A DNA stretch of 64,000 nucleotides. It comes from Escherichia phage FFH2. The position numbers were made by a program, and so were the translations under genes. Under the pieces are notes generated by a model. That model was not told where the DNA came from. It ran no database searches and saw only the letters and a list, made by a program, of their open reading frames with translations. This document shows, one piece after another, positions 26,590 through 38,822 of this stretch; within the stretch, counting starts at the first letter, position 1; each line of letters opens with the position of its first letter. The stretch is from the sequence record KJ190158; one strand, given 5' to 3'.

Positions 26590-26618
26590 TTGACAAACAG
26601 GTAAGATTTAGATATTAT
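26590..26618 (+). promoter_or_regulatory. sigma70-like promoter (TTGACA-17-TATTAT)
   Basis: Read directly. Confidence 0.45.
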
Positions 26619-28938: not shown

Positions 28939-29211
28939 GTGTATTTTGTTTTCAACAAGAGGGGGTCATTTATGTACAAGTCATTCTCAATCTACTCAAG
29001 ACAGGCGAAACACTACACAGAGATCCTGATCACTCAGAAAAAGTCTGTAGAAGGTGAGTGGGAGTATCACCATAAAATGTTGCGTCCAGATTGGGTTTTT
29101 GATAGACTTATTGCTATGATCCCTCTTGGAGAAGTATACCCTCTGACAGGTCATAGGGATGCTTGGGATTTAATTGATTACATAGATTCATTTAAGGAGC
29201 CCAGTGTATGA
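28939..29211 (+). CDS. hypothetical protein (90 aa)
   Basis: Co-oriented ORF. Confidence 0.35.
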   Translation: MYFVFNKRGSFMYKSFSIYSRQAKHYTEILITQKKSVEGEWEYHHKMLRPDWVFDRLIAMIPLGEVYPLTGHRDAWDLIDYIDSFKEPSV

Positions 29212-29606
29212 AGATTGAGATCACTAAAGAAGGTAAGAAAGTGTCTGGAGACTATGCAACAGTAATTCGAGATTTAATGTTTGAAACCACCAAGTTCGGC
29301 ACATCTAAAGTTGGTCAAACTGTTAGTGTGCAAGGCAATATCACCACAGGGGAGAAGATAATCATCGTGATCAAAGGACAAGATCCTGTGGAAGGAACAG
29401 TGGGCCGAGGAGGCTACCTGTGCATTTCTGAAGAACCGCGCATGCTGGTTGCTGATAACTCCACAGGTAAAAAGCGGGTATGTAACACGGACGAGGTGAT
29501 GATTATCTATCCAGTCAATCCAGATGATCCGGCAACATGGATTGTGGGAAATGAAATCTTCTCTTTAGAAGAGTTATCCTTTCCAGCTCCGCGCTCTGTT
29601 CAGTAA
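29208..29606 (+). CDS. small protein in the acidic small-gene array (MKIEIT N-terminus)
   Basis: N-terminus MKIEIT like ORFs 36728 and 40177. Confidence 0.4.
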   Translation: MKIEITKEGKKVSGDYATVIRDLMFETTKFGTSKVGQTVSVQGNITTGEKIIIVIKGQDPVEGTVGRGGYLCISEEPRMLVADNSTGKKRVCNTDEVMIIYPVNPDDPATWIVGNEIFSLEELSFPAPRSVQ

Positions 29607-29645
29607 TAATTTATCTTACCAGGGACGGTAGAAGTAGGAGGTAGC

Positions 29646-29879
29646 ATGAAAGTTAAATTTCTTACAGATTTAGGGTACCCTTCCTTGGTTGACTGCATTG
29701 GTAAAATTGTGGAAGCAAAACGGCTATCTGCAAACGATAATGTTGTCATGGTTAAGGGAAAAGATTTATTAGCTGCAGGTGCAGAGTCTGGCAGGATCTC
29801 TCCTGACTATACATATTACTTATCTTTAAGTAATCTACCAGAACGAGGCGGCAAAGGCCTTGAAGTTGTGGAGGAGTGA
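29646..29879 (+). CDS. small acidic protein, paralogue group A (MKVKFL ... GKDLLAAGA ... VVEE)
   Basis: Shares motif layout with ORFs 33306 and 33523. Confidence 0.45.
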   Translation: MKVKFLTDLGYPSLVDCIGKIVEAKRLSANDNVVMVKGKDLLAAGAESGRISPDYTYYLSLSNLPERGGKGLEVVEE

Positions 29880-30421
29880 CAGGTATGCTTCTGATTAACT
29901 GGGAAGACCTCTATGGGGACAAAGACCCTGTTGCGTTTGTTGATCGTAGATGGAGATACACTGAAGAACAACTGGCTGCAAAAAATTTAACTGCGAAACG
30001 CAGAAAGATCATCCAGTGCAAGTACAAATACGCACAATTTGCTGCAAAAGTGTCTCCACAAATCGAGAGTTTTGTACTTAAATTGTATGACGAATACCTC
30101 AAGTTCAAATTGGATTTTGTACAGGTGTACCGTGCACAGGTACGCCCAGATACCAACATATGTAGATGGAAGGTTGTTTGTGACGGTAAAGATTTGCCGC
30201 TCAGCTTGACAATTGAGTGGCGTTATGGGTATCATGAGTGTGGTCTGTATGATACTTGGGATGTCATTGTAGATCCTGCTAAGTACCTGAACACAGAGGA
30301 GCTGGAATATATCAATAAGGTTATTCTCGATATGTTTTTCAGATACACCCGTGAAAACTCTGAGAAAGAACGGGATGATTTTCTTGACACCATCAGCAAC
30401 CATCTGCAGTATACAATTTAA
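29876..30421 (+). CDS. hypothetical protein (181 aa)
   Basis: Co-oriented ORF. Confidence 0.4.
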   Translation: MTGMLLINWEDLYGDKDPVAFVDRRWRYTEEQLAAKNLTAKRRKIIQCKYKYAQFAAKVSPQIESFVLKLYDEYLKFKLDFVQVYRAQVRPDTNICRWKVVCDGKDLPLSLTIEWRYGYHECGLYDTWDVIVDPAKYLNTEELEYINKVILDMFFRYTRENSEKERDDFLDTISNHLQYTI

Positions 30422-30439
30422 CCTACAAAGGGAGGGCTA

Positions 30440-30664
30440 ATGAGTATAAATGTTGTGCTAATAGGCTACCTGGTAATAGCCGTTATAACAGCGGTATTCT
30501 TGACAGGTATATGCATCGTGTCTAGACGAAAGGTGAAGTTTGATGATTTTATCACCATCATCACTGCTGCACCTTTTTGGCCTATTGTTATCTTCATCGT
30601 AATAATGTGCCTAGTTGATTACTACAAGAATATTCGTAAGGAGAAAAAGGAGAGTAGGGATTGA
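30440..30664 (+). CDS. small membrane protein (74 aa)
   Basis: Two hydrophobic helices. Confidence 0.4.
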   Translation: MSINVVLIGYLVIAVITAVFLTGICIVSRRKVKFDDFITIITAAPFWPIVIFIVIMCLVDYYKNIRKEKKESRD

Positions 30665-30877
30665 GACCGCACCTAAAACTGTTTATACTGTTCTTAAAGA
30701 GATTGCGTTCTACGCAGATCTTAGCCAGGCACCTTTATGGGAAAAGAGCATGTATTTAAAATGGTGCGTTAATTTAGGGAGACCTTCCAGTGTTTCAAGC
30801 CATGTTTATTGAGATGCTATCTGGGGTATTGTTACTGGTAGCCATCTTAGGTGGTGCAGTTCTGATGTATAACTATC

Positions 30878-31081
30878 TTGAAAAAGGAGACAGCAATGGC
30901 AAAAAATAAATCTTTAGAGCAGGCTGAAAACCTTCTCCACGAGCTGGTAAAGGAGTGGAAAGTTGAATACTCAGATTTTAATGCACGAGAGGGTGAAGAT
31001 TATTGGCCTACGGAGCGCTCAGAGGGCGAATGGTATCAAGATTTTATAGAGTGGTTATATCAGACGTGCGATGAGGGGTGA
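30878..31081 (+). CDS. hypothetical protein (67 aa)
   Basis: ORF with GGAGA SD. Confidence 0.35.
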   Translation: MKKETAMAKNKSLEQAENLLHELVKEWKVEYSDFNAREGEDYWPTERSEGEWYQDFIEWLYQTCDEG

Positions 31082-31539
31082 CGATGTTTGTTAAATATGT
31101 AAAAACGTGCCTCAACAGTCTTGGCAGAGAGCATTGGTACACCTTACTTGAAAAAGGAGAAATTTTAACAAAATCTGGAAAGATAACTTTGATACCCTTG
31201 GACGATAAAGACCCGTCACTCCTTGTCATAGATGATTACGTTACAGGTGTGTCGTACGAGGTCTCTGTGGAGAGGTTAATACGCAGAGCTGGCGGCCCTT
31301 GTGATCAAAGAGAGTATGTTTTCGATTCCGTTACAGAGAGGGATCATCCGTCTTTAATGTTCAGGATGGTAATCAGGGATATGAGGTCATCTATAGATAG
31401 GATCGTAAAGGACATTAAGGAACCTTTTAGGGTAAAAGTTAAGAAGTTTTTTGATTCTAAGATTAACATACTTGCTGTTGTGCTAGGCGTAATTCAACTT
31501 CTGTTAATTTTGCACTATTTTGAACTGTTGTTTAAGTAG
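31078..31539 (+). CDS. hypothetical protein with C-terminal membrane anchor (153 aa)
   Basis: C-terminal hydrophobic helix. Confidence 0.4.
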   Translation: MTMFVKYVKTCLNSLGREHWYTLLEKGEILTKSGKITLIPLDDKDPSLLVIDDYVTGVSYEVSVERLIRRAGGPCDQREYVFDSVTERDHPSLMFRMVIRDMRSSIDRIVKDIKEPFRVKVKKFFDSKINILAVVLGVIQLLLILHYFELLFK

Positions 31540-31599
31540 TGTGCAACAAGGCACAAAGGATGTGCCATAATTAAACAAATTAAGAAAGAGGTAGAGAGA

Positions 31600-31947
31600 A
31601 TGTCAAAGATTAAATCGATATTAATGTGGGTAGCTGTTGTGGCTTTTGTAGGATACTGGACTTGGGAAACTGAATTAAAAGATATCGGATATACCAGTCT
31701 TGAGAGCAAGGCATGCATTGGCATAACCGATGCATTCAGGCAAAATGCTATGGATCACGAATGTGTCGATGCAGATATAGATGAGAAACTGTCTAAGGAC
31801 AAGGATTTTTACCATGGTCATGCCTTGCTTGATAGTGGTGACACTGTAGAATTCTGGTCGTGGTTCCGTGAAGATGGAACAATAAAGACAGCAGTAAAGA
31901 TTTCCAACAAAGAGTTAATGCTGTTGCAGCAGAAGGAGGTGCAATGA
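31600..31947 (+). CDS. hypothetical protein with N-terminal membrane anchor (115 aa)
   Basis: N-terminal hydrophobic helix. Confidence 0.4.
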   Translation: MSKIKSILMWVAVVAFVGYWTWETELKDIGYTSLESKACIGITDAFRQNAMDHECVDADIDEKLSKDKDFYHGHALLDSGDTVEFWSWFREDGTIKTAVKISNKELMLLQQKEVQ

Positions 31948-32231
31948 TTTGGATATCCTACACTGATGGCACCATGCTGTATACTGCAGGTACTAGGTAT
32001 GAAGTTCAGGAGGACGATAAAAAATTTATCGTAAAAACATTTGACAAGGACGACAACCTTTTGTTAGAATTGACTTACAAGGTTGGGGAGGTATCTAGCA
32101 TCCAATTGGATTGCGGTCATAAAGATAACCCGCTCAAGAAACCTGGGGTAGGTAAAGCTTCAGAAGAACGCCTGTCTCGTATTGCAGAAAGCGTTTCTGC
32201 ACAAAAATCTAAGAAGAGGATTAGAAAATGA
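31944..32231 (+). CDS. hypothetical protein (95 aa)
   Basis: Overlapping start/stop. Confidence 0.35.
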   Translation: MIWISYTDGTMLYTAGTRYEVQEDDKKFIVKTFDKDDNLLLELTYKVGEVSSIQLDCGHKDNPLKKPGVGKASEERLSRIAESVSAQKSKKRIRK

Positions 32232-32428
32232 GTGACAAAATTCTTAAATTTAATACCTACTATGAGAATGATTTGAACGATCTGTATTATATAGTGCGTA
32301 GCGAAAACCCAAATGTAGTACTGTTTTGCCGAGAACCTTTCAAAAAAGAGGAGATTGAATCTACCATGGATGTGGATCAGATTTCACACCTGCTGCTCCT
32401 TGGATCATTAAAAGAGGCAGTATTCTAA
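32228..32428 (+). CDS. hypothetical protein (66 aa)
   Basis: Overlapping start/stop. Confidence 0.3.
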   Translation: MSDKILKFNTYYENDLNDLYYIVRSENPNVVLFCREPFKKEEIESTMDVDQISHLLLLGSLKEAVF

Positions 32429-32447
32429 ACCAGGATGGAGGGTTTTT

Positions 32448-32633
32448 ATGAAGCACTATTGTCTGTCTGGTAGAATGGGTGCAGATTGTGATTGGGTTTT
32501 CTTAAAACTTGTCAGCATTCGAGAGTCCATTTCAGAGGAAGAGCAAGAAAGTGAGCTAATGTCCTGGATCAACCATTACGGTAACACTTTTCGGCATGTT
32601 AAGGTAGAAGAGTTGCCAAGTGAGGCTGATTGA
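32448..32633 (+). CDS. hypothetical protein (61 aa)
   Basis: Co-oriented ORF. Confidence 0.3.
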   Translation: MKHYCLSGRMGADCDWVFLKLVSIRESISEEEQESELMSWINHYGNTFRHVKVEELPSEAD

Positions 32634-32728
32634 CTATGATTGCATCAATATTAACGTTTATGGGTGGCGTGGCATTCGGATTCATTGTTTGCCTGTTTAT
32701 AGTGATTATGTCTATGCGAGGCTGAATT

Positions 32729-33025
32729 ATGAAACTTTTTGAGTGGTTTAAAAAGTTTAAATATAAAGCTGTAGCCATCGTGCCGTGGTCCATTCAGTGG
32801 GTTGATGAAGGTGGTCTACCAATACCTGGTGACAAAGATACTGGGTACTGGATTATGATGGAGAACGGGTTTGGAAAGCGAAAGTATACGTGCACAAACT
32901 CTACTCGATCTGCGCTTAATAGAGTGCCTGGTTACAAACTTATGGTTGTGTGGAAAATGTCAGGCGTGCCTCCAGCTAATGCTCAATTTCTTACTGACAA
33001 TCCGACCACGGTAGAGGAAGATTGA
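32729..33025 (+). CDS. hypothetical protein (98 aa)
   Basis: Co-oriented ORF. Confidence 0.35.
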   Translation: MKLFEWFKKFKYKAVAIVPWSIQWVDEGGLPIPGDKDTGYWIMMENGFGKRKYTCTNSTRSALNRVPGYKLMVVWKMSGVPPANAQFLTDNPTTVEED

Positions 33026-33309
33026 TAATGAAAAAGATTAACAGTGGTGAAGTTGAGTTTAAACTTGTCGGGAAAGGCACTTACTGGGAAGTTCGTCAAA
33101 AGGTATATTTGTTCGGTCTTATTCCCTATTGGTCTAAATTCTACTGGGGAGCTAACGAGTGGGGAAGATACGCCACCAAATCAATGGCACTTATTGGTAT
33201 AGCAGAGTACATTGCAGCCAGAGATAGGGTTGGAGACACTTATTACTATACTGCGGACGATATTCGTAACAGTGTTTACGTCCCACAACCACCTGATGGA
33301 GACCGTTGA
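33022..33309 (+). CDS. hypothetical protein (95 aa)
   Basis: Overlapping start/stop. Confidence 0.35.
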   Translation: MIMKKINSGEVEFKLVGKGTYWEVRQKVYLFGLIPYWSKFYWGANEWGRYATKSMALIGIAEYIAARDRVGDTYYYTADDIRNSVYVPQPPDGDR

Positions 33310-33533
33310 TGAAAGTTAAAGTTTTAGATTCAAGCTTCTATATTGGTCAGGAGCCTTTAGTAGGAAAAGTGTTTACTGCTGTCCCTAACGAAGATTACCC
33401 TGACCTTTTAAAAATAAAAGGAGCAGATCTTATTGCCGCTGGTGCATCTCAGGAATGCTTTGACAGTCAGTGGACCTACAACTTTGCCCTAGGTGAGGAT
33501 GTAGAGGTAGTGGAGGACGATCATGAAGGTTAA
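33306..33533 (+). CDS. small acidic protein, paralogue group A (MKVKVLD ... GADLIAAGA ... VEVVEDD)
   Basis: Clear paralogue of ORFs 33523 and 29646. Confidence 0.5.
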   Translation: MMKVKVLDSSFYIGQEPLVGKVFTAVPNEDYPDLLKIKGADLIAAGASQECFDSQWTYNFALGEDVEVVEDDHEG

Positions 33534-33777
33534 AATTCTTGATTCTAACGTCTACTTGGGACAATCCTTCCTGAATGGAAAGGTCGTTCCTGCGGTATAC
33601 TTTGAAGGGTTGCCGTGGGATGATCCTGTGCGGCAACATCACAGTTATGTAGGCCACAACGTGGTGTTTATCTTGGGATCAGACCTGATCACCGCTGGTG
33701 CACCTGAATATTATTTCGGGGAAGAGTCCTACTATGCCTTTGGGGTAGGGTCAGATGCAGATATTGTAGAGCTGTGA
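33523..33777 (+). CDS. small acidic protein, paralogue group A (MKVKILD ... GSDLITAGA ... DIVEL)
   Basis: Tandem duplicate of ORF 33306. Confidence 0.5.
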   Translation: MKVKILDSNVYLGQSFLNGKVVPAVYFEGLPWDDPVRQHHSYVGHNVVFILGSDLITAGAPEYYFGEESYYAFGVGSDADIVEL

Positions 33778-33789
33778 TGGGTAACCGTT

Positions 33790-34188
33790 GTGAAAAATAA
33801 ACTGTTTAAAGTTACAATGAAAATTCGCGGGGCTTGGAGCGTAAAGCAAGGGCGTATTCCAGAATTTGAGAAAGACTTCTACGTAGTCTCCACCTCGGAG
33901 GAGGCTGCATGCTGGCAGGCTGGCTATGCCTATGCAAGAACCTGGTACGAAGGGTACCAGACTGGGGGCTATGACGGAGAAATTATCAGCAAGGGTGTAG
34001 AAGAAATTAATGTGTTGACAAGTGAAAAAGTTTTTGTTATAGTGCATCCAGATTCCAGAGTGAAGCATTACTGGAATGCCAGAACAAAAACTTGGACACC
34101 GTTTGCAGATTCTGCTACGCCACTTTTAAACCAGAAAGCTCTTGACTCTGCCCCAAGTTATGGGGTTGTTGAAGAAAAGCTAAACTGA
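33790..34188 (+). CDS. hypothetical protein, paralogue group B (HP.S...YW...WTP)
   Basis: FVIVHPDSRVKHYWNARTKTWTP parallels FVMRHPHSNIAYYWDVLNNEWTP in ORF 35995. Confidence 0.45.
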   Translation: MKNKLFKVTMKIRGAWSVKQGRIPEFEKDFYVVSTSEEAACWQAGYAYARTWYEGYQTGGYDGEIISKGVEEINVLTSEKVFVIVHPDSRVKHYWNARTKTWTPFADSATPLLNQKALDSAPSYGVVEEKLN

Positions 34189-34205
34189 AACAGTGAGGTG
34201 TCACC

Positions 34206-34496
34206 ATGATGGATTTAATTCTAAATATTGATAACGCAGGAGAGTTTAAAGACGATGGTGTAACAAGCATGGACAAACCCTGCTCTGCTAAGGTTGACTC
34301 AAAATGGACCTACAAGTTTGACGGAGAGATCTTCGCAAATGATGAGAAGGTTGTAGATGCTGCAGCCATTTTAAACGCTCTAGGGTACGACCCTGTGAAT
34401 TCTTTGATCAAGGATCCTGTTGAGTTTGCAGAGTATGTTCGAAAAATGGCAGATCTTGCTGTGGATATTTTAAAAACTATCGACAACAAGCTGTAA
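34206..34496 (+). CDS. hypothetical acidic protein (96 aa)
   Basis: Co-oriented ORF. Confidence 0.35.
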   Translation: MMDLILNIDNAGEFKDDGVTSMDKPCSAKVDSKWTYKFDGEIFANDEKVVDAAAILNALGYDPVNSLIKDPVEFAEYVRKMADLAVDILKTIDNKL

Positions 34497-34502
34497 AAAC
34501 TG

Positions 34503-34531
34503 TTGACACAACGCTTCAGATTTAGTATCAT
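34503..34531 (+). promoter_or_regulatory. sigma70-like promoter (TTGACA-17-TATCAT) for the HPF-like gene
   Basis: Read directly; followed by 5' UTR hairpin GAGGGtttggttCCCTC. Confidence 0.45.
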
Positions 34532-34578
34532 TGTTTTCAAAGAGGGTTTGGTTCCCTCTTCTTTAAAAGGAACACGTT

Positions 34579-34896
34579 ATGCAAATTGAAATCACTGGCA
34601 ACGTAGAAATCACTGAAGGTATGGTGTCTTTCATTTCCCACAAAATGTCTAAGCTGGAGCGTTTGCACCCCTCTGCCAACTATGCACGTGTGAGTGTAAA
34701 AGTTGAAAATGATCACCAGGAAGTTATGGCGCTCATTTTTGACAATTCTGGAAAAGAAGTTATTGCCAGGGCTAAAGGTAGTGATGCTTACGAGGCAACT
34801 GACCGTATGGTAGATGTTGCAGCACGTCAGCTGGCTAAATGCGGTGGAAAGAAAGGTAAGGGGAAAGGCAAAGTAAAGATTGACTTTGGAGAATGA
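34579..34896 (+). CDS. hpf: ribosome hibernation promoting factor / RaiA (YfiA) family protein
   Basis: MQIEITGNVEITEGM...KLERLH...VSVKVEN...GKEVIARAKGSDAYEATDRMVDVAARQLAK parallels bacterial HPF/YfiA (MQLNITG.NVEIT...KLE.....V.V.....HA...D.Y.AID...KL.RQL.K) as recalled. Confidence 0.75.
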   Translation: MQIEITGNVEITEGMVSFISHKMSKLERLHPSANYARVSVKVENDHQEVMALIFDNSGKEVIARAKGSDAYEATDRMVDVAARQLAKCGGKKGKGKGKVKIDFGE

Positions 34897-34905
34897 GGTG
34901 CTACA

Positions 34906-35007
34906 ATGGGCGTGATTAAGAAACTAGTCCCAAATGTAGAGATTGCATGCTTTGAAATTATGTTTGCAATCGCAGTTGTAGTTAATGTGTTAGGTTACGG
35001 CTATTAA
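34906..35007 (+). CDS. small hydrophobic peptide (33 aa)
   Basis: Below cutoff; GAGGTG SD; single transmembrane-like helix. Confidence 0.25.
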   Translation: MGVIKKLVPNVEIACFEIMFAIAVVVNVLGYGY

Positions 35008-35033
35008 TATCAAATAATTGAGGAGACCTCTAA

Positions 35034-35303
35034 ATGAAAATTAAATTATTCAAAACTGAGCTGGCAGACAAAAACTGTGGACTGGTTGAAGGCATGATTG
35101 TCGAAGCACGACCAGTTGACTATATGAAGGTGGTTCGTGATGCCCTGGGTGAAGGTTTTGATCTGATGGAGCCAGCTCTGCGAGAAGATGTTATCGAGAT
35201 GGCTAAAAAGCACACACCTGAAGGAATGGTGGTGTTTGTTGCACCAGGTAACGGAGAAGAGTTGATTGTAACTCCGGATGTGTATGAGATTGTAGAGGAA
35301 TAA
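35034..35303 (+). CDS. small acidic protein in array (MKIKLFK ... EIVEE)
   Basis: Similar termini to neighbouring small acidic ORFs. Confidence 0.4.
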   Translation: MKIKLFKTELADKNCGLVEGMIVEARPVDYMKVVRDALGEGFDLMEPALREDVIEMAKKHTPEGMVVFVAPGNGEELIVTPDVYEIVEE

Positions 35304-35394
35304 TCCTGCTTGGATTAGCATACTTCCTCGACAAGGAAGGTTTGTAATTATTTGTGGGAAAGGAATCCCAATCTCTTACCATAGGTGATACTAT

Positions 35395-35658
35395 ATGATT
35401 GTTTATTTTAAAACTTCAGGTGGATACCCTGATTCTCAAAGCTTGATCGGAAAAACGTGCACAGCATACTCACCTCTTGATGAGGAGGTAGGCGATATTC
35501 TACGAAATATGTATCGGATTGATCCCCAAGAAGCCTTTGATCAAAACCTTGTATTTGTCAAGGGCTCAGACATGAAGTCTTTGGGAGCATTCCCTGAAGC
35601 AGATGATGATGCCGTTTATTCGTTCATGACCCCTTTTGAAGCTATGGTTGTCGGGTGA
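35395..35658 (+). CDS. small acidic protein in array (YPDSQSLIGK ... VFVKGSDMKSLGA)
   Basis: Resembles ORF 29646 (YPSLVDCIGK ... VMVKGKDLLAAGA). Confidence 0.45.
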   Translation: MIVYFKTSGGYPDSQSLIGKTCTAYSPLDEEVGDILRNMYRIDPQEAFDQNLVFVKGSDMKSLGAFPEADDDAVYSFMTPFEAMVVG

Positions 35659-35995
35659 TAATATGAAAGTACGCTTTATTGGTGAAACAATTCCTGTGCA
35701 TCTCCGGTCGCCTGAAGATTCTGCAGATCTTGCATCTCAGAAGGCGAGAGGTTATGATAAGAAAGTAATCTCAACCGATGTAGAACTTGAGGCTACTAGT
35801 CTACCTGACCCTGCTGCATTCTTTAATCATTATGGATACTATTTCAGCAATCTGATGAATATCGGTGAGCTTGTGTTTATTAGTGGTGGAGAAATTGTTA
35901 GCAAGCTTGGCGGCGATCCGGATGTCTTTCATGAAACCTGTCCTTTTGCATTTGTGGTAGGTTCAGATGTGGAAGTTATTGAGGAGGTGCGGTAA
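35636..35995 (+). CDS. small acidic protein in array (119 aa)
   Basis: C-terminus VVGSDVEVIEEVR like group A tails. Confidence 0.4.
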   Translation: MKLWLSGDNMKVRFIGETIPVHLRSPEDSADLASQKARGYDKKVISTDVELEATSLPDPAAFFNHYGYYFSNLMNIGELVFISGGEIVSKLGGDPDVFHETCPFAFVVGSDVEVIEEVR

Positions 35996-36390
35996 TGGTA
36001 AGCCTATACCGTGTTGAGTATAGCTCAGATACTGTGTACAACGTAAGAAGCAAAGATCGCAGCGACAGAGTGCAAGAAATGTATGTTCTTGCCGACAGTC
36101 CGTTATCTGCAGCGTTCAAGGCAGGGGCTCTTGCATCTCGTTGGAAATTTGAAGGCGGATCTTTCTATGAAGAAACCCTTGAAGATTCTGTTGTTATTTC
36201 TTCTGTAGAGGTTTCAGATGACTACGAAGGGAAAAAGTTCGTAATGCGGCACCCACACAGCAACATTGCGTACTACTGGGATGTTCTGAACAACGAGTGG
36301 ACCCCAGATCTTCAGAAGGCTACTGTGCTAACACCGTTTTTGGCAGATAAGTTCCCACCAGAAGGTAATTTATCCGCACTGTTTCAGTAA
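35995..36390 (+). CDS. hypothetical protein, paralogue group B
   Basis: Paralogue of ORF 33790. Confidence 0.45.
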   Translation: MVSLYRVEYSSDTVYNVRSKDRSDRVQEMYVLADSPLSAAFKAGALASRWKFEGGSFYEETLEDSVVISSVEVSDDYEGKKFVMRHPHSNIAYYWDVLNNEWTPDLQKATVLTPFLADKFPPEGNLSALFQ

Positions 36391-36408
36391 TTTTCTTGCA
36401 CACAGGTG

Positions 36409-36437
36409 TTGACAACACCAACCCTGTGTGAAATAAT
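36409..36437 (+). promoter_or_regulatory. sigma70-like promoter (TTGACA-17-AATAAT)
   Basis: Read directly. Confidence 0.35.
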
Positions 36438-36466
36438 ACCTTCATCTTAACAAGACGGGAGACTGA

Positions 36467-36727
36467 TTGATGAAGATTAAACTGAAAAACCTTGAAATGG
36501 CAGAGATTCAGGATGGTGTTGATTTCCGCTCTAAAGATGGTGACATCTTAGAGGTAAATCTTCCAACCTACGAGCTGATTAAAGGTTTTGGCAACGTTCA
36601 GGAAGAGGATATTCCAGAAATTCTTATGATGTTGATTCTTGACGGAACTGTGTTTGTAGGTGAAGGTGAGAACGCTATTGCAATCCCAGGCCATTTTTAT
36701 GAAGTAGTTGACGAAGAGGTGCTGTAA
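36467..36727 (+). CDS. small acidic protein in array (MKIKLKN ... EVVDEEVL)
   Basis: Acidic C-terminus. Confidence 0.4.
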   Translation: MMKIKLKNLEMAEIQDGVDFRSKDGDILEVNLPTYELIKGFGNVQEEDIPEILMMLILDGTVFVGEGENAIAIPGHFYEVVDEEVL

Positions 36728-37078
36728 ATGAAAGTAGAAATTACCGGTTTTGATGTGAATGTGGTTCCGGAAGATATTTTAGCTAAACTTCCAGAAGGTT
36801 TTGGTAACGGCGTTGTGGTGGATGCTGTTCCTCCTACCAAAGACATTCTGCTGCAGTATGGTGTAGCAGAGGAAGATGTCGATAAAGTTCTTACAATGAT
36901 GGCAATCGATCGTGTTGTCGTTGTTAAAGGTCTCGATAATTTTGAGAGTGATCCACTGATTATTCGTGGAGATGACTACAAAATCATCGATAATGAAGGC
37001 CAAGAGTTCTATGAGCCTTGTGCAGAAGATATTCTTAACTTATTACTGGAAGCAGGCACCGAAGAGGAGGACGAATAA
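36728..37078 (+). CDS. small acidic protein in array (MKVEITG ... TEEEDE)
   Basis: Acidic C-terminus. Confidence 0.4.
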   Translation: MKVEITGFDVNVVPEDILAKLPEGFGNGVVVDAVPPTKDILLQYGVAEEDVDKVLTMMAIDRVVVVKGLDNFESDPLIIRGDDYKIIDNEGQEFYEPCAEDILNLLLEAGTEEEDE

Positions 37079-37407
37079 TGAAGATTGACCCGTTACTGAA
37101 GGCTCGTGCAGAAAAAGCGTACACCATTAAGTTGACCAACTTGGTTCCTACTTGTCATCCGGATGTAGGTTGGCCCGAAGGTTTGGTGGAGGGAACTGTA
37201 ACAGCTGCATACCTTCCTAACATCAAATACCTCATGGAAATCTTGGAGCTGGATGAGGAAACGGCAGAAGAGTTCCAGTTGGACATGAAACAAAGTGGGA
37301 CTCTGGTTATTCACGGGTGGTATAATACTAAAGATGCAGAAGACCCTCTGGTAACTTCTAATCTGGCATATGAAATCTTAGGGCCTTTGAACCTGGAGGA
37401 AGACTAA
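37078..37407 (+). CDS. small acidic protein (109 aa)
   Basis: Overlapping start/stop. Confidence 0.4.
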   Translation: MKIDPLLKARAEKAYTIKLTNLVPTCHPDVGWPEGLVEGTVTAAYLPNIKYLMEILELDEETAEEFQLDMKQSGTLVIHGWYNTKDAEDPLVTSNLAYEILGPLNLEED

Positions 37408-37694
37408 TGAAAGATCTGGTTAAGATTAAGATTAAAGATACCAATGGAGAACTCAGTCATTTTGGAATTAATGATGGTGACGAGCTGATCGCACACCTGC
37501 CTACCAAGGAGGTTGTAAGCAAAGCAGTTGCCGGAGAAGAAGCTGCAATGCAGGCTGCAGGTGTGGATGAAAACTATGTAGCTATGTGCATGTGCCGAGA
37601 TCAGGTTGTTCTGTATAAAGCGTATCGACCAAACGGAGCCACGGAGTGGCTTGTATTCCGACCCGAAGGATATGAAATCTTAGAGGCACTATGA
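37407..37694 (+). CDS. small acidic protein (95 aa)
   Basis: Overlapping start/stop. Confidence 0.4.
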   Translation: MKDLVKIKIKDTNGELSHFGINDGDELIAHLPTKEVVSKAVAGEEAAMQAAGVDENYVAMCMCRDQVVLYKAYRPNGATEWLVFRPEGYEILEAL

Positions 37695-37783: not shown

Positions 37784-38047
37784 ATGAACATCCTGATGTG
37801 GGTTATAGCAGTGGCGTTTGTTGCATGTTTTTGCTGCTGGGTTGCGGTGAGGATTTCTGTAGCTACCCTTCGGAAGTTGGGGTTCTCAGAATGGGATATT
37901 AATATCCTTTCTTTTCGCAATGAAACAATCTCAGCCGCCCTGCTTTGTAAGAAATTTAAGTGGGAACCTTGTGAGGTCATGAGCTATCTAAGAACAGGCG
38001 ATATCCCTGAAAGATTTAAAAAAGTTCTTGACGGCAAGGATAAATGA
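37784..38047 (+). CDS. small membrane protein (87 aa)
   Basis: N-terminal transmembrane helix. Confidence 0.35.
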   Translation: MNILMWVIAVAFVACFCCWVAVRISVATLRKLGFSEWDINILSFRNETISAALLCKKFKWEPCEVMSYLRTGDIPERFKKVLDGKDK

Positions 38048-38793: not shown

Positions 38794-38822
38794 AAGAGGG
38801 GGGCTTGGGCCCCTCTTTTTAC
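38794..38822 (+). terminator. intrinsic terminator (GAGGGGC ttgg GCCCCTC + TTTTT)
   Basis: Read directly. Confidence 0.6.

Follow-up and report, generated by a model that had tools for sequence, protein, structure and literature searches.

A stretch of 64,000 nucleotides of Escherichia phage FFH2 (sequence record KJ190158; hereafter, the window) contains, between positions 29208 and 37694, a dense run of small genes, which raises the question of whether these genes are a collection of unrelated short reading frames or the outcome of repeated duplication and, in the latter case, what kind of proteins they encode and what these proteins may do for the phage. The comparative analysis described here indicates that the block holds three paralogous families of small genes, with 12 genes distributed between Group A (five), Group B (two) and Group C (five). 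Thus, the initial annotation of this DNA was right in recognizing several genuine paralogue groups, as judged by Smith-Waterman comparisons, leave-one-out hidden Markov models (HMMs) and hhalign; no further members of any group were detected by HMM among the 747 six-frame open reading frames (ORFs) of the window. The genes, 25 in all, lie in a row on the + strand and encode proteins of 61-178 aa (in most cases 61-132 aa), and the overlapping starts and stops reported earlier are real, with nine junctions that overlap or abut (gaps of -11 to 0 nt). The whole window is Vequintavirus DNA, at 98% identity with phage PDX and 97.7% with rV5; within the 8.5-kb region these values are 98.1% (Escherichia phage PDX) and 97.7% (rV5). 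The region is the counterpart of rV5 gp121-gp149, nearly all of which are annotated as hypothetical, with a homologue of HPF/RaiA in the middle. The rV5 genome paper makes no mention of paralogues, nor is anything said about the block genes in two candidate papers that deal with early or accessory genes.

Group A comprises the genes at 29646..29879 (77 aa), 33309..33533 (74 aa), 33523..33777 (84 aa, with an 11-nt overlap with 33309), 35395..35658 (87 aa) and 35663..35995 (110 aa), all on the + strand. This is exactly the membership originally claimed, except that the true starts of two genes are likely to be ATG 33309, not TTG 33306, and ATG 35663, not TTG 35636, in agreement with the annotation of rV5. 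Three approaches agree on it. Smith-Waterman scores within the group lie above those of all 300 shuffles, with z=23 for the pair 33309/33523, z=15 for 29646/33309 and values of ~8 and ~5 for 35663 and 35395, respectively. In the leave-one-out comparison, run against the same 747 ORFs with a noise floor at E>=0.05, each member is recovered as the best non-training match (E from 2.6e-5 for 35663 to 3e-14, with 9e-8 for the divergent 35395). A profile built from 36 relatives outside the window is matched at full length by all five genes, with hhalign probabilities of 99.4% (33309), 99.3% (29646), 98.8% (33523), 95.5% (35663, over 40 columns) and 93.4% (35395), and the rest of the block yields nothing above 5.3%. 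The consensus of this wider family, MKVKLL..GGY.G...GKvv.A...v.G.eLi.AGA...Y.F..E.EvvEe, is anchored by the conserved positions GGY, GK, DLIxAGA and Y.F.

The two genes of Group B, at 33790..34188 (+ strand, 132 aa, pI 7.8) and 35995..36390 (+ strand, 131 aa), were paired correctly on the basis of their HP.S...YW......WTP motif, and the pair is recovered by Smith-Waterman comparison (z=18), by reciprocal HMM searches (E ~1e-8; 5e-9 for 35995) and by hhalign (94%). A scan of IMG/VR found Group B only in rV5-like contigs and fragments. Group C, which is probably a single family, consists of 35034..35303 (89 aa; leave-one-out E 4.4e-4), 36470..36727 (85 aa), 36728..37078 (116 aa; E 6e-6), 37078..37407 (109 aa; E 3.6e-3) and 37407..37694 (95 aa; E 2.7e-5), again on the + strand; the full range of its leave-one-out values is 3.6e-3 to 6e-6. 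It is graded below Groups A and B because its pairwise profile comparisons are weak, reaching 51% in hhalign at best. Most of the genes that had been loosely associated by MK(I/V)(E/K)I N-termini and VVEE, IEE or EED tails fall into this group ('MKIK...' and '...YEIVEE'), and this part of the earlier grouping stands; the tail similarity itself is partly a by-product of translational coupling, as discussed below.

Structure prediction, which had been suggested as a follow-up, gave confident models for both barrel-forming groups. The AlphaFold model of the Group A protein 33309 (predicted local distance difference test score, pLDDT, of 92.6) is an SH3-like small beta-barrel with strands at residues 2-5, 21-23, 33-37, 56-61 and 65-69 and a short helix at 38-43. 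In that of the Group C protein 36470 (pLDDT 87.1) the strands follow one another in the same order, but beta2 and beta3 are separated by an insertion of two helices. Both models display the features expected of the SH3-like fold (five antiparallel strands, a closed barrel and superposition on known members), and hence A and C are each predicted to form a single SH3-like five-stranded beta-barrel. The barrel of Group A is decorated by the short helix after beta3 and by variable insertions in the beta2-beta3 loop: 29646 represents the compact form, 33523 carries a short insertion in this loop, 35395 is divergent and also has a loop insertion, and 35663 has an insertion of ~50 aa after beta1/beta2. 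A common ancestry of the two barrel groups was considered and rejected as unproven. The hhalign probability for A against C was 0.7% when the profiles were thin and reached 11% with the 36-sequence profile, and no Group C proteins are present among the BFVD neighbours of A, so that, as far as profiles and structural neighbours can tell, A and C share only a fold class.

None of these groups could be assigned to a known family, in agreement with the initial annotation. Scans of the family members and most other block genes against Pfam, NCBIfam and PADLOC gave nothing above threshold, and sequence searches of the PDB with four profiles gave no credible match; a match to PDB 8frf was discarded, as it is a designed protein with no stretch passing by itself. 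Nor was a characterized relative of A or C found in PDB, Pfam, NCBIfam or BFVD. Among narrower possibilities, the known anti-defence families represented in Pfam (Ocr, ArdA, Tad2/DUF2829 and others) gave no Pfam or NCBIfam match, the KOW domain (NusG/Spt5/L24) gave no Pfam match at E<=0.1 for any member, and the ALYDY motif and WW/P pocket residues of the eukaryotic-type peptide-binding SH3 domain are likewise not supported by any Pfam match.

The three families differ in how far they reach. Word-indexed searches of 5.8 billion proteins returned matches to A, B and C almost only on rV5-like contigs, and among 50,697 phage records searched by tblastn with A and B as queries, only rV5-like ones gave matches. 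A HMMER scan of 1.84 billion cluster representatives, in turn, recovered 69 Group A clusters (defined at 50% identity) at E<=1e-3, mostly stand-alone proteins of 63-90 aa, several with two to three tandem copies and one with a fusion to DUF3310. The existence of this fusion, of the tandem domains and of unrelated C-terminal extensions suggests that the Group A barrel is used as a module. Outside the rV5-like phages the gene is usually present in single copy (two copies at one locus) among small accessory ORFs of temperate phages. Examples include a lambdoid E. coli prophage with the Q antiterminator on one side and a holin on the other, a locus with RecT, YqaJ, a methylase, ASCH and NinX and an integrase nearby, and a locus flanked by a primase-polymerase and a terminase; the window gene nearest to an E. 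coli prophage homologue (P0030, 45% identity) is 29646. Since the gene is single-copy in other phages, the five copies per genome point to a lineage-specific expansion, and we hold with about even confidence that A represents a wider and uncurated family of phage proteins which has expanded locally to five copies. Groups B and C were found only in the Vequintavirus genus. Presence and absence across related phages fit the same picture: of 120 matching phage records, all rV5-like (Vequintavirus), 113 contain the block at >=80% coverage, and no A, B or C genes occur in the syntenic blocks of the sister genera (Seunavirus SSE121 and Mydovirus Mydo).

Two observations on these records stand apart. 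The DUF3310 fusion is carried by P0124, a distant relative of Group A, and other relatives carry unrelated C-terminal extensions. Furthermore, 18 records (MG0656xx) named 'Campylobacter phage', with C. jejuni listed as the host, are 93-97% identical to this block, and their host assignment looks doubtful.

The genomic setting of the block suggests when these genes are expressed. It lies downstream of the genes for PhoH, a ClpP-like protease and a methyltransferase, within a long rightward unit that also carries nucleotide-metabolism genes. Near-consensus sigma-70 promoters (11/12 positions) are located in the intergenic gaps at 26590, 34503 and 36409, in agreement with the rV5 annotations P121, P144 and P150: the promoter at 34503..34531 (+ strand, P144) precedes the HPF gene and the genes from 35034 to 35995, and that at 36409..36437 (+ strand, extended -10, P150) precedes the Group C run. 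The unit ends at an intrinsic terminator (38798..38814, + strand), which likewise matches the rV5 annotation. From these promoters and the terminator we infer early or middle expression by the host RNA polymerase. Multi-copy families of small uncharacterized proteins are usual in early regions of large lytic phages.

Comparison of the window with rV5, ECP26, FV3 and JEP1 (ratios of nonsynonymous to synonymous substitution rates, dN/dS, by the Nei-Gojobori method) revealed dN/dS of 0.03-0.16 for Group A, 0.03-0.06 for Group B and 0.08-0.20 for Group C, next to 0.02-0.04 for the flanking enzymes (the ClpP-like protease and the methyltransferase). The orthologues are 92-99% identical at the protein level across the genus, and every family member is under purifying selection. 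Hence, the description of these genes as fast-evolving does not apply at the genus timescale, given orthologue dN/dS within 0.03-0.20. Substitution patterns of this kind indicate that the family genes are real and maintained, that the duplications are older than the radiation of the genus and that the divergence of the paralogues is old. Structural change has nevertheless occurred. In one rV5-like lineage the tandem 33309 and 33523 is replaced, on contigs of up to 133 kb, by an exact in-frame fusion (P0014) of the first 47 codons of 33309 to the last 23 of 33523. Because its junction sits at the sole 30-nt stretch common to both genes (33420..33449, + strand, encoding GADLIAAGA and 80% identical to 33676-33705), which is the recombination site, P0014 is a product of unequal recombination between the paralogues. 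In the rV5 reference genome, 37407 is split into two overlapping ORFs, gp148 (70 aa) and gp149 (L001 11201-11471), reflecting either a frameshift or a sequencing error; the gene is unbroken in the window, ECP26, FV3 and JEP1.

A natural deletion offers a test of what part of the block contributes. The viable BASEL phage EduardKellenberger (Bas59, MZ501061) lacks the segment corresponding to 30282..34102 (+ strand; 3.8 kb), that is, 11 whole genes and parts of 29885 and 33790, with the ends joined across a 15-bp overlap. The loss includes two Group A genes (33309 and 33523) and Group B gene 33790 except its last ~28 codons, which at the junction are fused to the N-terminal part of 29885. The published raw BASEL plating data allow a comparison, over 11 defence systems, of Bas59 with Bas57 and Bas58, both of which have the full block. 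All three phages behave alike with EcoKI (efficiency of plating, EOP, 0.06-0.8), EcoCFT_I (EOP 0.2-1), EcoRI (EOP ~1e-4 to 2e-3), EcoRV and EcoCFT_II (essentially no plaques) as well as with RexAB, PifA, Old and Tin (EOP ~1), and their host ranges are identical. The genes in the deletion are responsible for no phenotype in the BASEL panel, and they are dispensable, since Bas59 is viable and resembles its siblings; an effect could nevertheless be hidden by the surviving paralogues, and only a small panel is involved. Together with the lack of A, B and C genes in the sister-genus syntenic blocks, this viable natural deletion supports an accessory status of the block genes. That the block forms the accessory portion of an early or middle Vequintavirus transcription unit is a view for which we see the chances as roughly balanced, and the same middling confidence attaches to the idea that its paralogues are individually dispensable in laboratory conditions.

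We propose that each A or C protein would act as a stand-alone protein-binding module, made early from the host sigma-70 promoters and directed, in takeover or in counter-defence, at a protein of the host or of a competitor. In this model, the conserved barrel would provide the scaffold, specificity would come from the variable beta2-beta3 loop or insert and from the acidic tail, and the paralogues would be retained since their targets differ. This assignment of A and C as early protein-binding accessory modulators with diversified targets, in which we infer the timing, the binding and the targets, may be right or wrong with similar probability. A bolder version takes all ten barrel genes (A and C) for a diversified binder toolkit, each neutralizing a different host defence or takeover target, with CarS-like DNA mimicry possibly in some of the most acidic members, and takes A for a hitherto unrecognized, widespread anti-defence or host-modulation domain that is single in temperate phages; we regard it as rather unlikely. 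Several observations count against the proposed role. Strict conservation and low dN/dS are usually not the signature of arms-race genes, Bas59 is like Bas57 and Bas58 in 10 of the 11 defence systems and in host range, and sensitivity to the remaining one, EcoPI, differs among the three phages without tracking the deletion. Moreover, the sequences do not back a common ancestry of A and C, which stays unproven at the hhalign values given above, and the statistics behind Group C are weaker than those for A and B.

The other explanations of the block differ in how much of the evidence they can absorb. The initial annotation itself pointed to chance as the reading that alignments might uncover, and the similarity of some tails indeed has a trivial component: inside seven of ~10 EE/ED tails lies the Shine-Dalgarno sequence of a tightly coupled downstream gene (start within a few bases), so that the likeness of tails across unrelated genes is in part a by-product of translational coupling, and 'MK' N-termini are common anyway. 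The notion that the shared motifs are chance or compositional similarities among unrelated ORFans is nevertheless hardly credible in the face of shuffle z values of up to 23, leave-one-out HMMs that recover every member, an external profile that selects exactly the five A genes and the independent clustering of the A core and of B in PHROGs. It is refuted for A and B, and in the wider Group A family the conservation of the EVVEE end across unrelated genomes is genuine. Acidity invites another interpretation, in which the proteins are acidic DNA mimics that sequester DNA-binding host proteins (restriction enzymes, nucleoid proteins, repressors), with Ocr, ArdA and CarS as precedents. The acidic character noted earlier holds as a tendency (median pI of 4.8 in the block vs. 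6.1 elsewhere, p=0.04, or p=0.09 against other small genes) and not as a rule, since seven block genes are basic. Most family members have pI 4.0-5.4, and several are strongly acidic, such as 36728 with its acidic C-terminal extension (net charge -21 over 116 aa), 36470 (-13 over 85 aa) and 33309 (-10 over 74 aa). CarS provides an existing case of an acidic SH3-topology mimic of operator DNA (PMC2926617), and the type I systems EcoKI and EcoCFT_I have only a mild effect on the Vequintaviruses (EOP 0.06-1). However, charge is not conserved within the families: it ranges from -21 to +1 among the 12 members (-0.18 to +0.01 per residue), with 29646 at -1 and the basic 33790 at +1, and from -0.18 to +0.03 per residue among 40 members of the wider Group A, 30% of which are near neutral. 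In addition, none of the known mimic families, Ocr and ArdA included, is matched in Pfam, restriction by EcoRI, EcoRV and EcoCFT_II is strong (according to the BASEL authors, the susceptibility of Vequintavirinae to restriction-modification is exceptional), and the EOP on EcoKI is unchanged by the loss of two A genes and one B gene. DNA mimicry is weakened by this unconserved charge, missing family match and restriction sensitivity, and we consider it unlikely.

Predominant acidity also bears on the suggestion that these are nucleic-acid-binding small barrels (KOW-, Sm-, Tudor- or integrase C-terminal domain-like) that act on transcription or translation beside the hibernation factor gene. The mid-block HPF/RaiA homologue speaks for it, but most members, at pI 4.0-5.4, are ill-suited to RNA or DNA binding and neither KOW nor any other Pfam motif was detected, which makes such a role improbable. 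An association with the virion, be it as structural components or as cargo that is packaged and leaves with the DNA, would seem to be indicated by the rV5 supplementary table, which calls ORF152 (the orthologue of 37078) and ORF133 (the orthologue of 31078) 'structural protein (MS evidence)', where MS stands for mass spectrometry. In this table, searched in part and for five of the 12 family members, each of these labels goes back to two single-spectrum semi- or non-tryptic peptides with XCorr of 1.8-2.5 (1.8-1.9 for ORF152), a quality equal to that of matches to other ORFs outside the morphogenesis module. The main text of the rV5 paper names no other A, B or C member among the virion proteins, 31078 is missing from the viable Bas59, and the genes reside in a sigma-70-driven unit with nucleotide-metabolism genes, distant from the morphogenesis module; a place in the virion is therefore very unlikely. 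Early protein-binding modulators thus remain our preferred reading for A and C.

Several neighbouring genes and their annotations deserve correction or comment. The HPF/RaiA homologue at 34579-34896 has its own near-consensus sigma-70 promoter (34503-34531), is present genus-wide and shows a dN/dS of 0.10. Orthologues of the Group C gene 35034 are labelled 'sigma 54 modulation factor' in ECP26 (L008 8320-8589), and the records nimi, ime and naswa carry this label twice. As 35034 has no Pfam match and gives <2% with HPF in hhalign, it does not qualify as a hibernation factor, and its label looks like a spill-over from the true HPF gene at 34579. From the rV5 orthologues of 31078-31539 and 37078-37407, the 'virion structural protein' labels have spread into RefSeq and PHROGs (phrog_7821). 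The genes at 31600-31947 and 37784-38047 begin with hydrophobic segments that are nearly identical (SILMWVAVVAFVGYW and NILMWVIAVAFVACF) and probably serve as a membrane anchor or signal; the likeness of the two genes is confined to this N-terminal stretch of 15 residues. A fourth family was not accepted: the C-terminal ~75 aa of 29885-30421 and 34206-34496 are 29% identical with a Smith-Waterman z=7, but their hhalign probability is <2%. These two genes, along with 30440, have the top dN/dS in the block (0.26-0.32), and 29885 is named 'putative glycosidase' in the BASEL records, for which Pfam gives no support.

At present, the value of this analysis lies in the definition of the families, the fold assignment, the evidence for dispensability and the corrected annotations, including the recognition of Group A as an uncurated and fairly widespread domain, in a genus that is widely used in biocontrol and therapy. 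If the proteins do bind host or defence proteins, Group A would constitute an effector domain of phages that is new, compact and widely spread, and in the rV5-like phages one could follow, along a natural series of five paralogues, how a small barrel is retargeted by loop insertions.

A comparison with existing resources and known systems places these families as follows. PHROGs contains clusters for the A core (phrog_5009) and for B (phrog_7379), both labelled 'unknown function' with no fold or description. The former is matched end to end by 29646 (E 6e-36), 33309 and 33523 (overall E 1e-32 to 1e-38), the latter by both Group B genes (E 4e-74 for 33790 and 2e-66 for 35995). The match of 35395 to phrog_5009 is weak (E 1e-4), 35663 does not match it and each Group C gene is in its own singleton phrog, so that PHROGs under-merges the families. 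In BFVD, the neighbours of A are uncharacterized phage proteins of 65-90 aa with the same size and predicted fold (template modelling, TM, score of 0.7-0.86), which come from large lytic phages (CS01, Merlin, RB49, Sf20, VpV262, ZCKP1) and share only 14-26% sequence identity with it; the BFVD matches also include the CM1 orthologue of 35395 (TM 0.79). The nearest fold class is the SH3-like small beta-barrel, as in the KOW domain of Spt5/NusG, PsaE, the C-terminal domain of retroviral integrase and eukaryotic SH3. Within this class, the closest parallel may be CarS of Myxococcus xanthus, an acidic SH3-topology antirepressor and DNA mimic (PMC2926617) that resembles the window proteins in being small, acidic and stand-alone with SH3 topology. 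It differs from them in that it gives no sequence match or top-ranked structural match and that the window proteins form multi-copy phage families of unconserved charge; the comparison is accordingly one of analogy and not of membership, with CarS itself acting purely through binding another protein.

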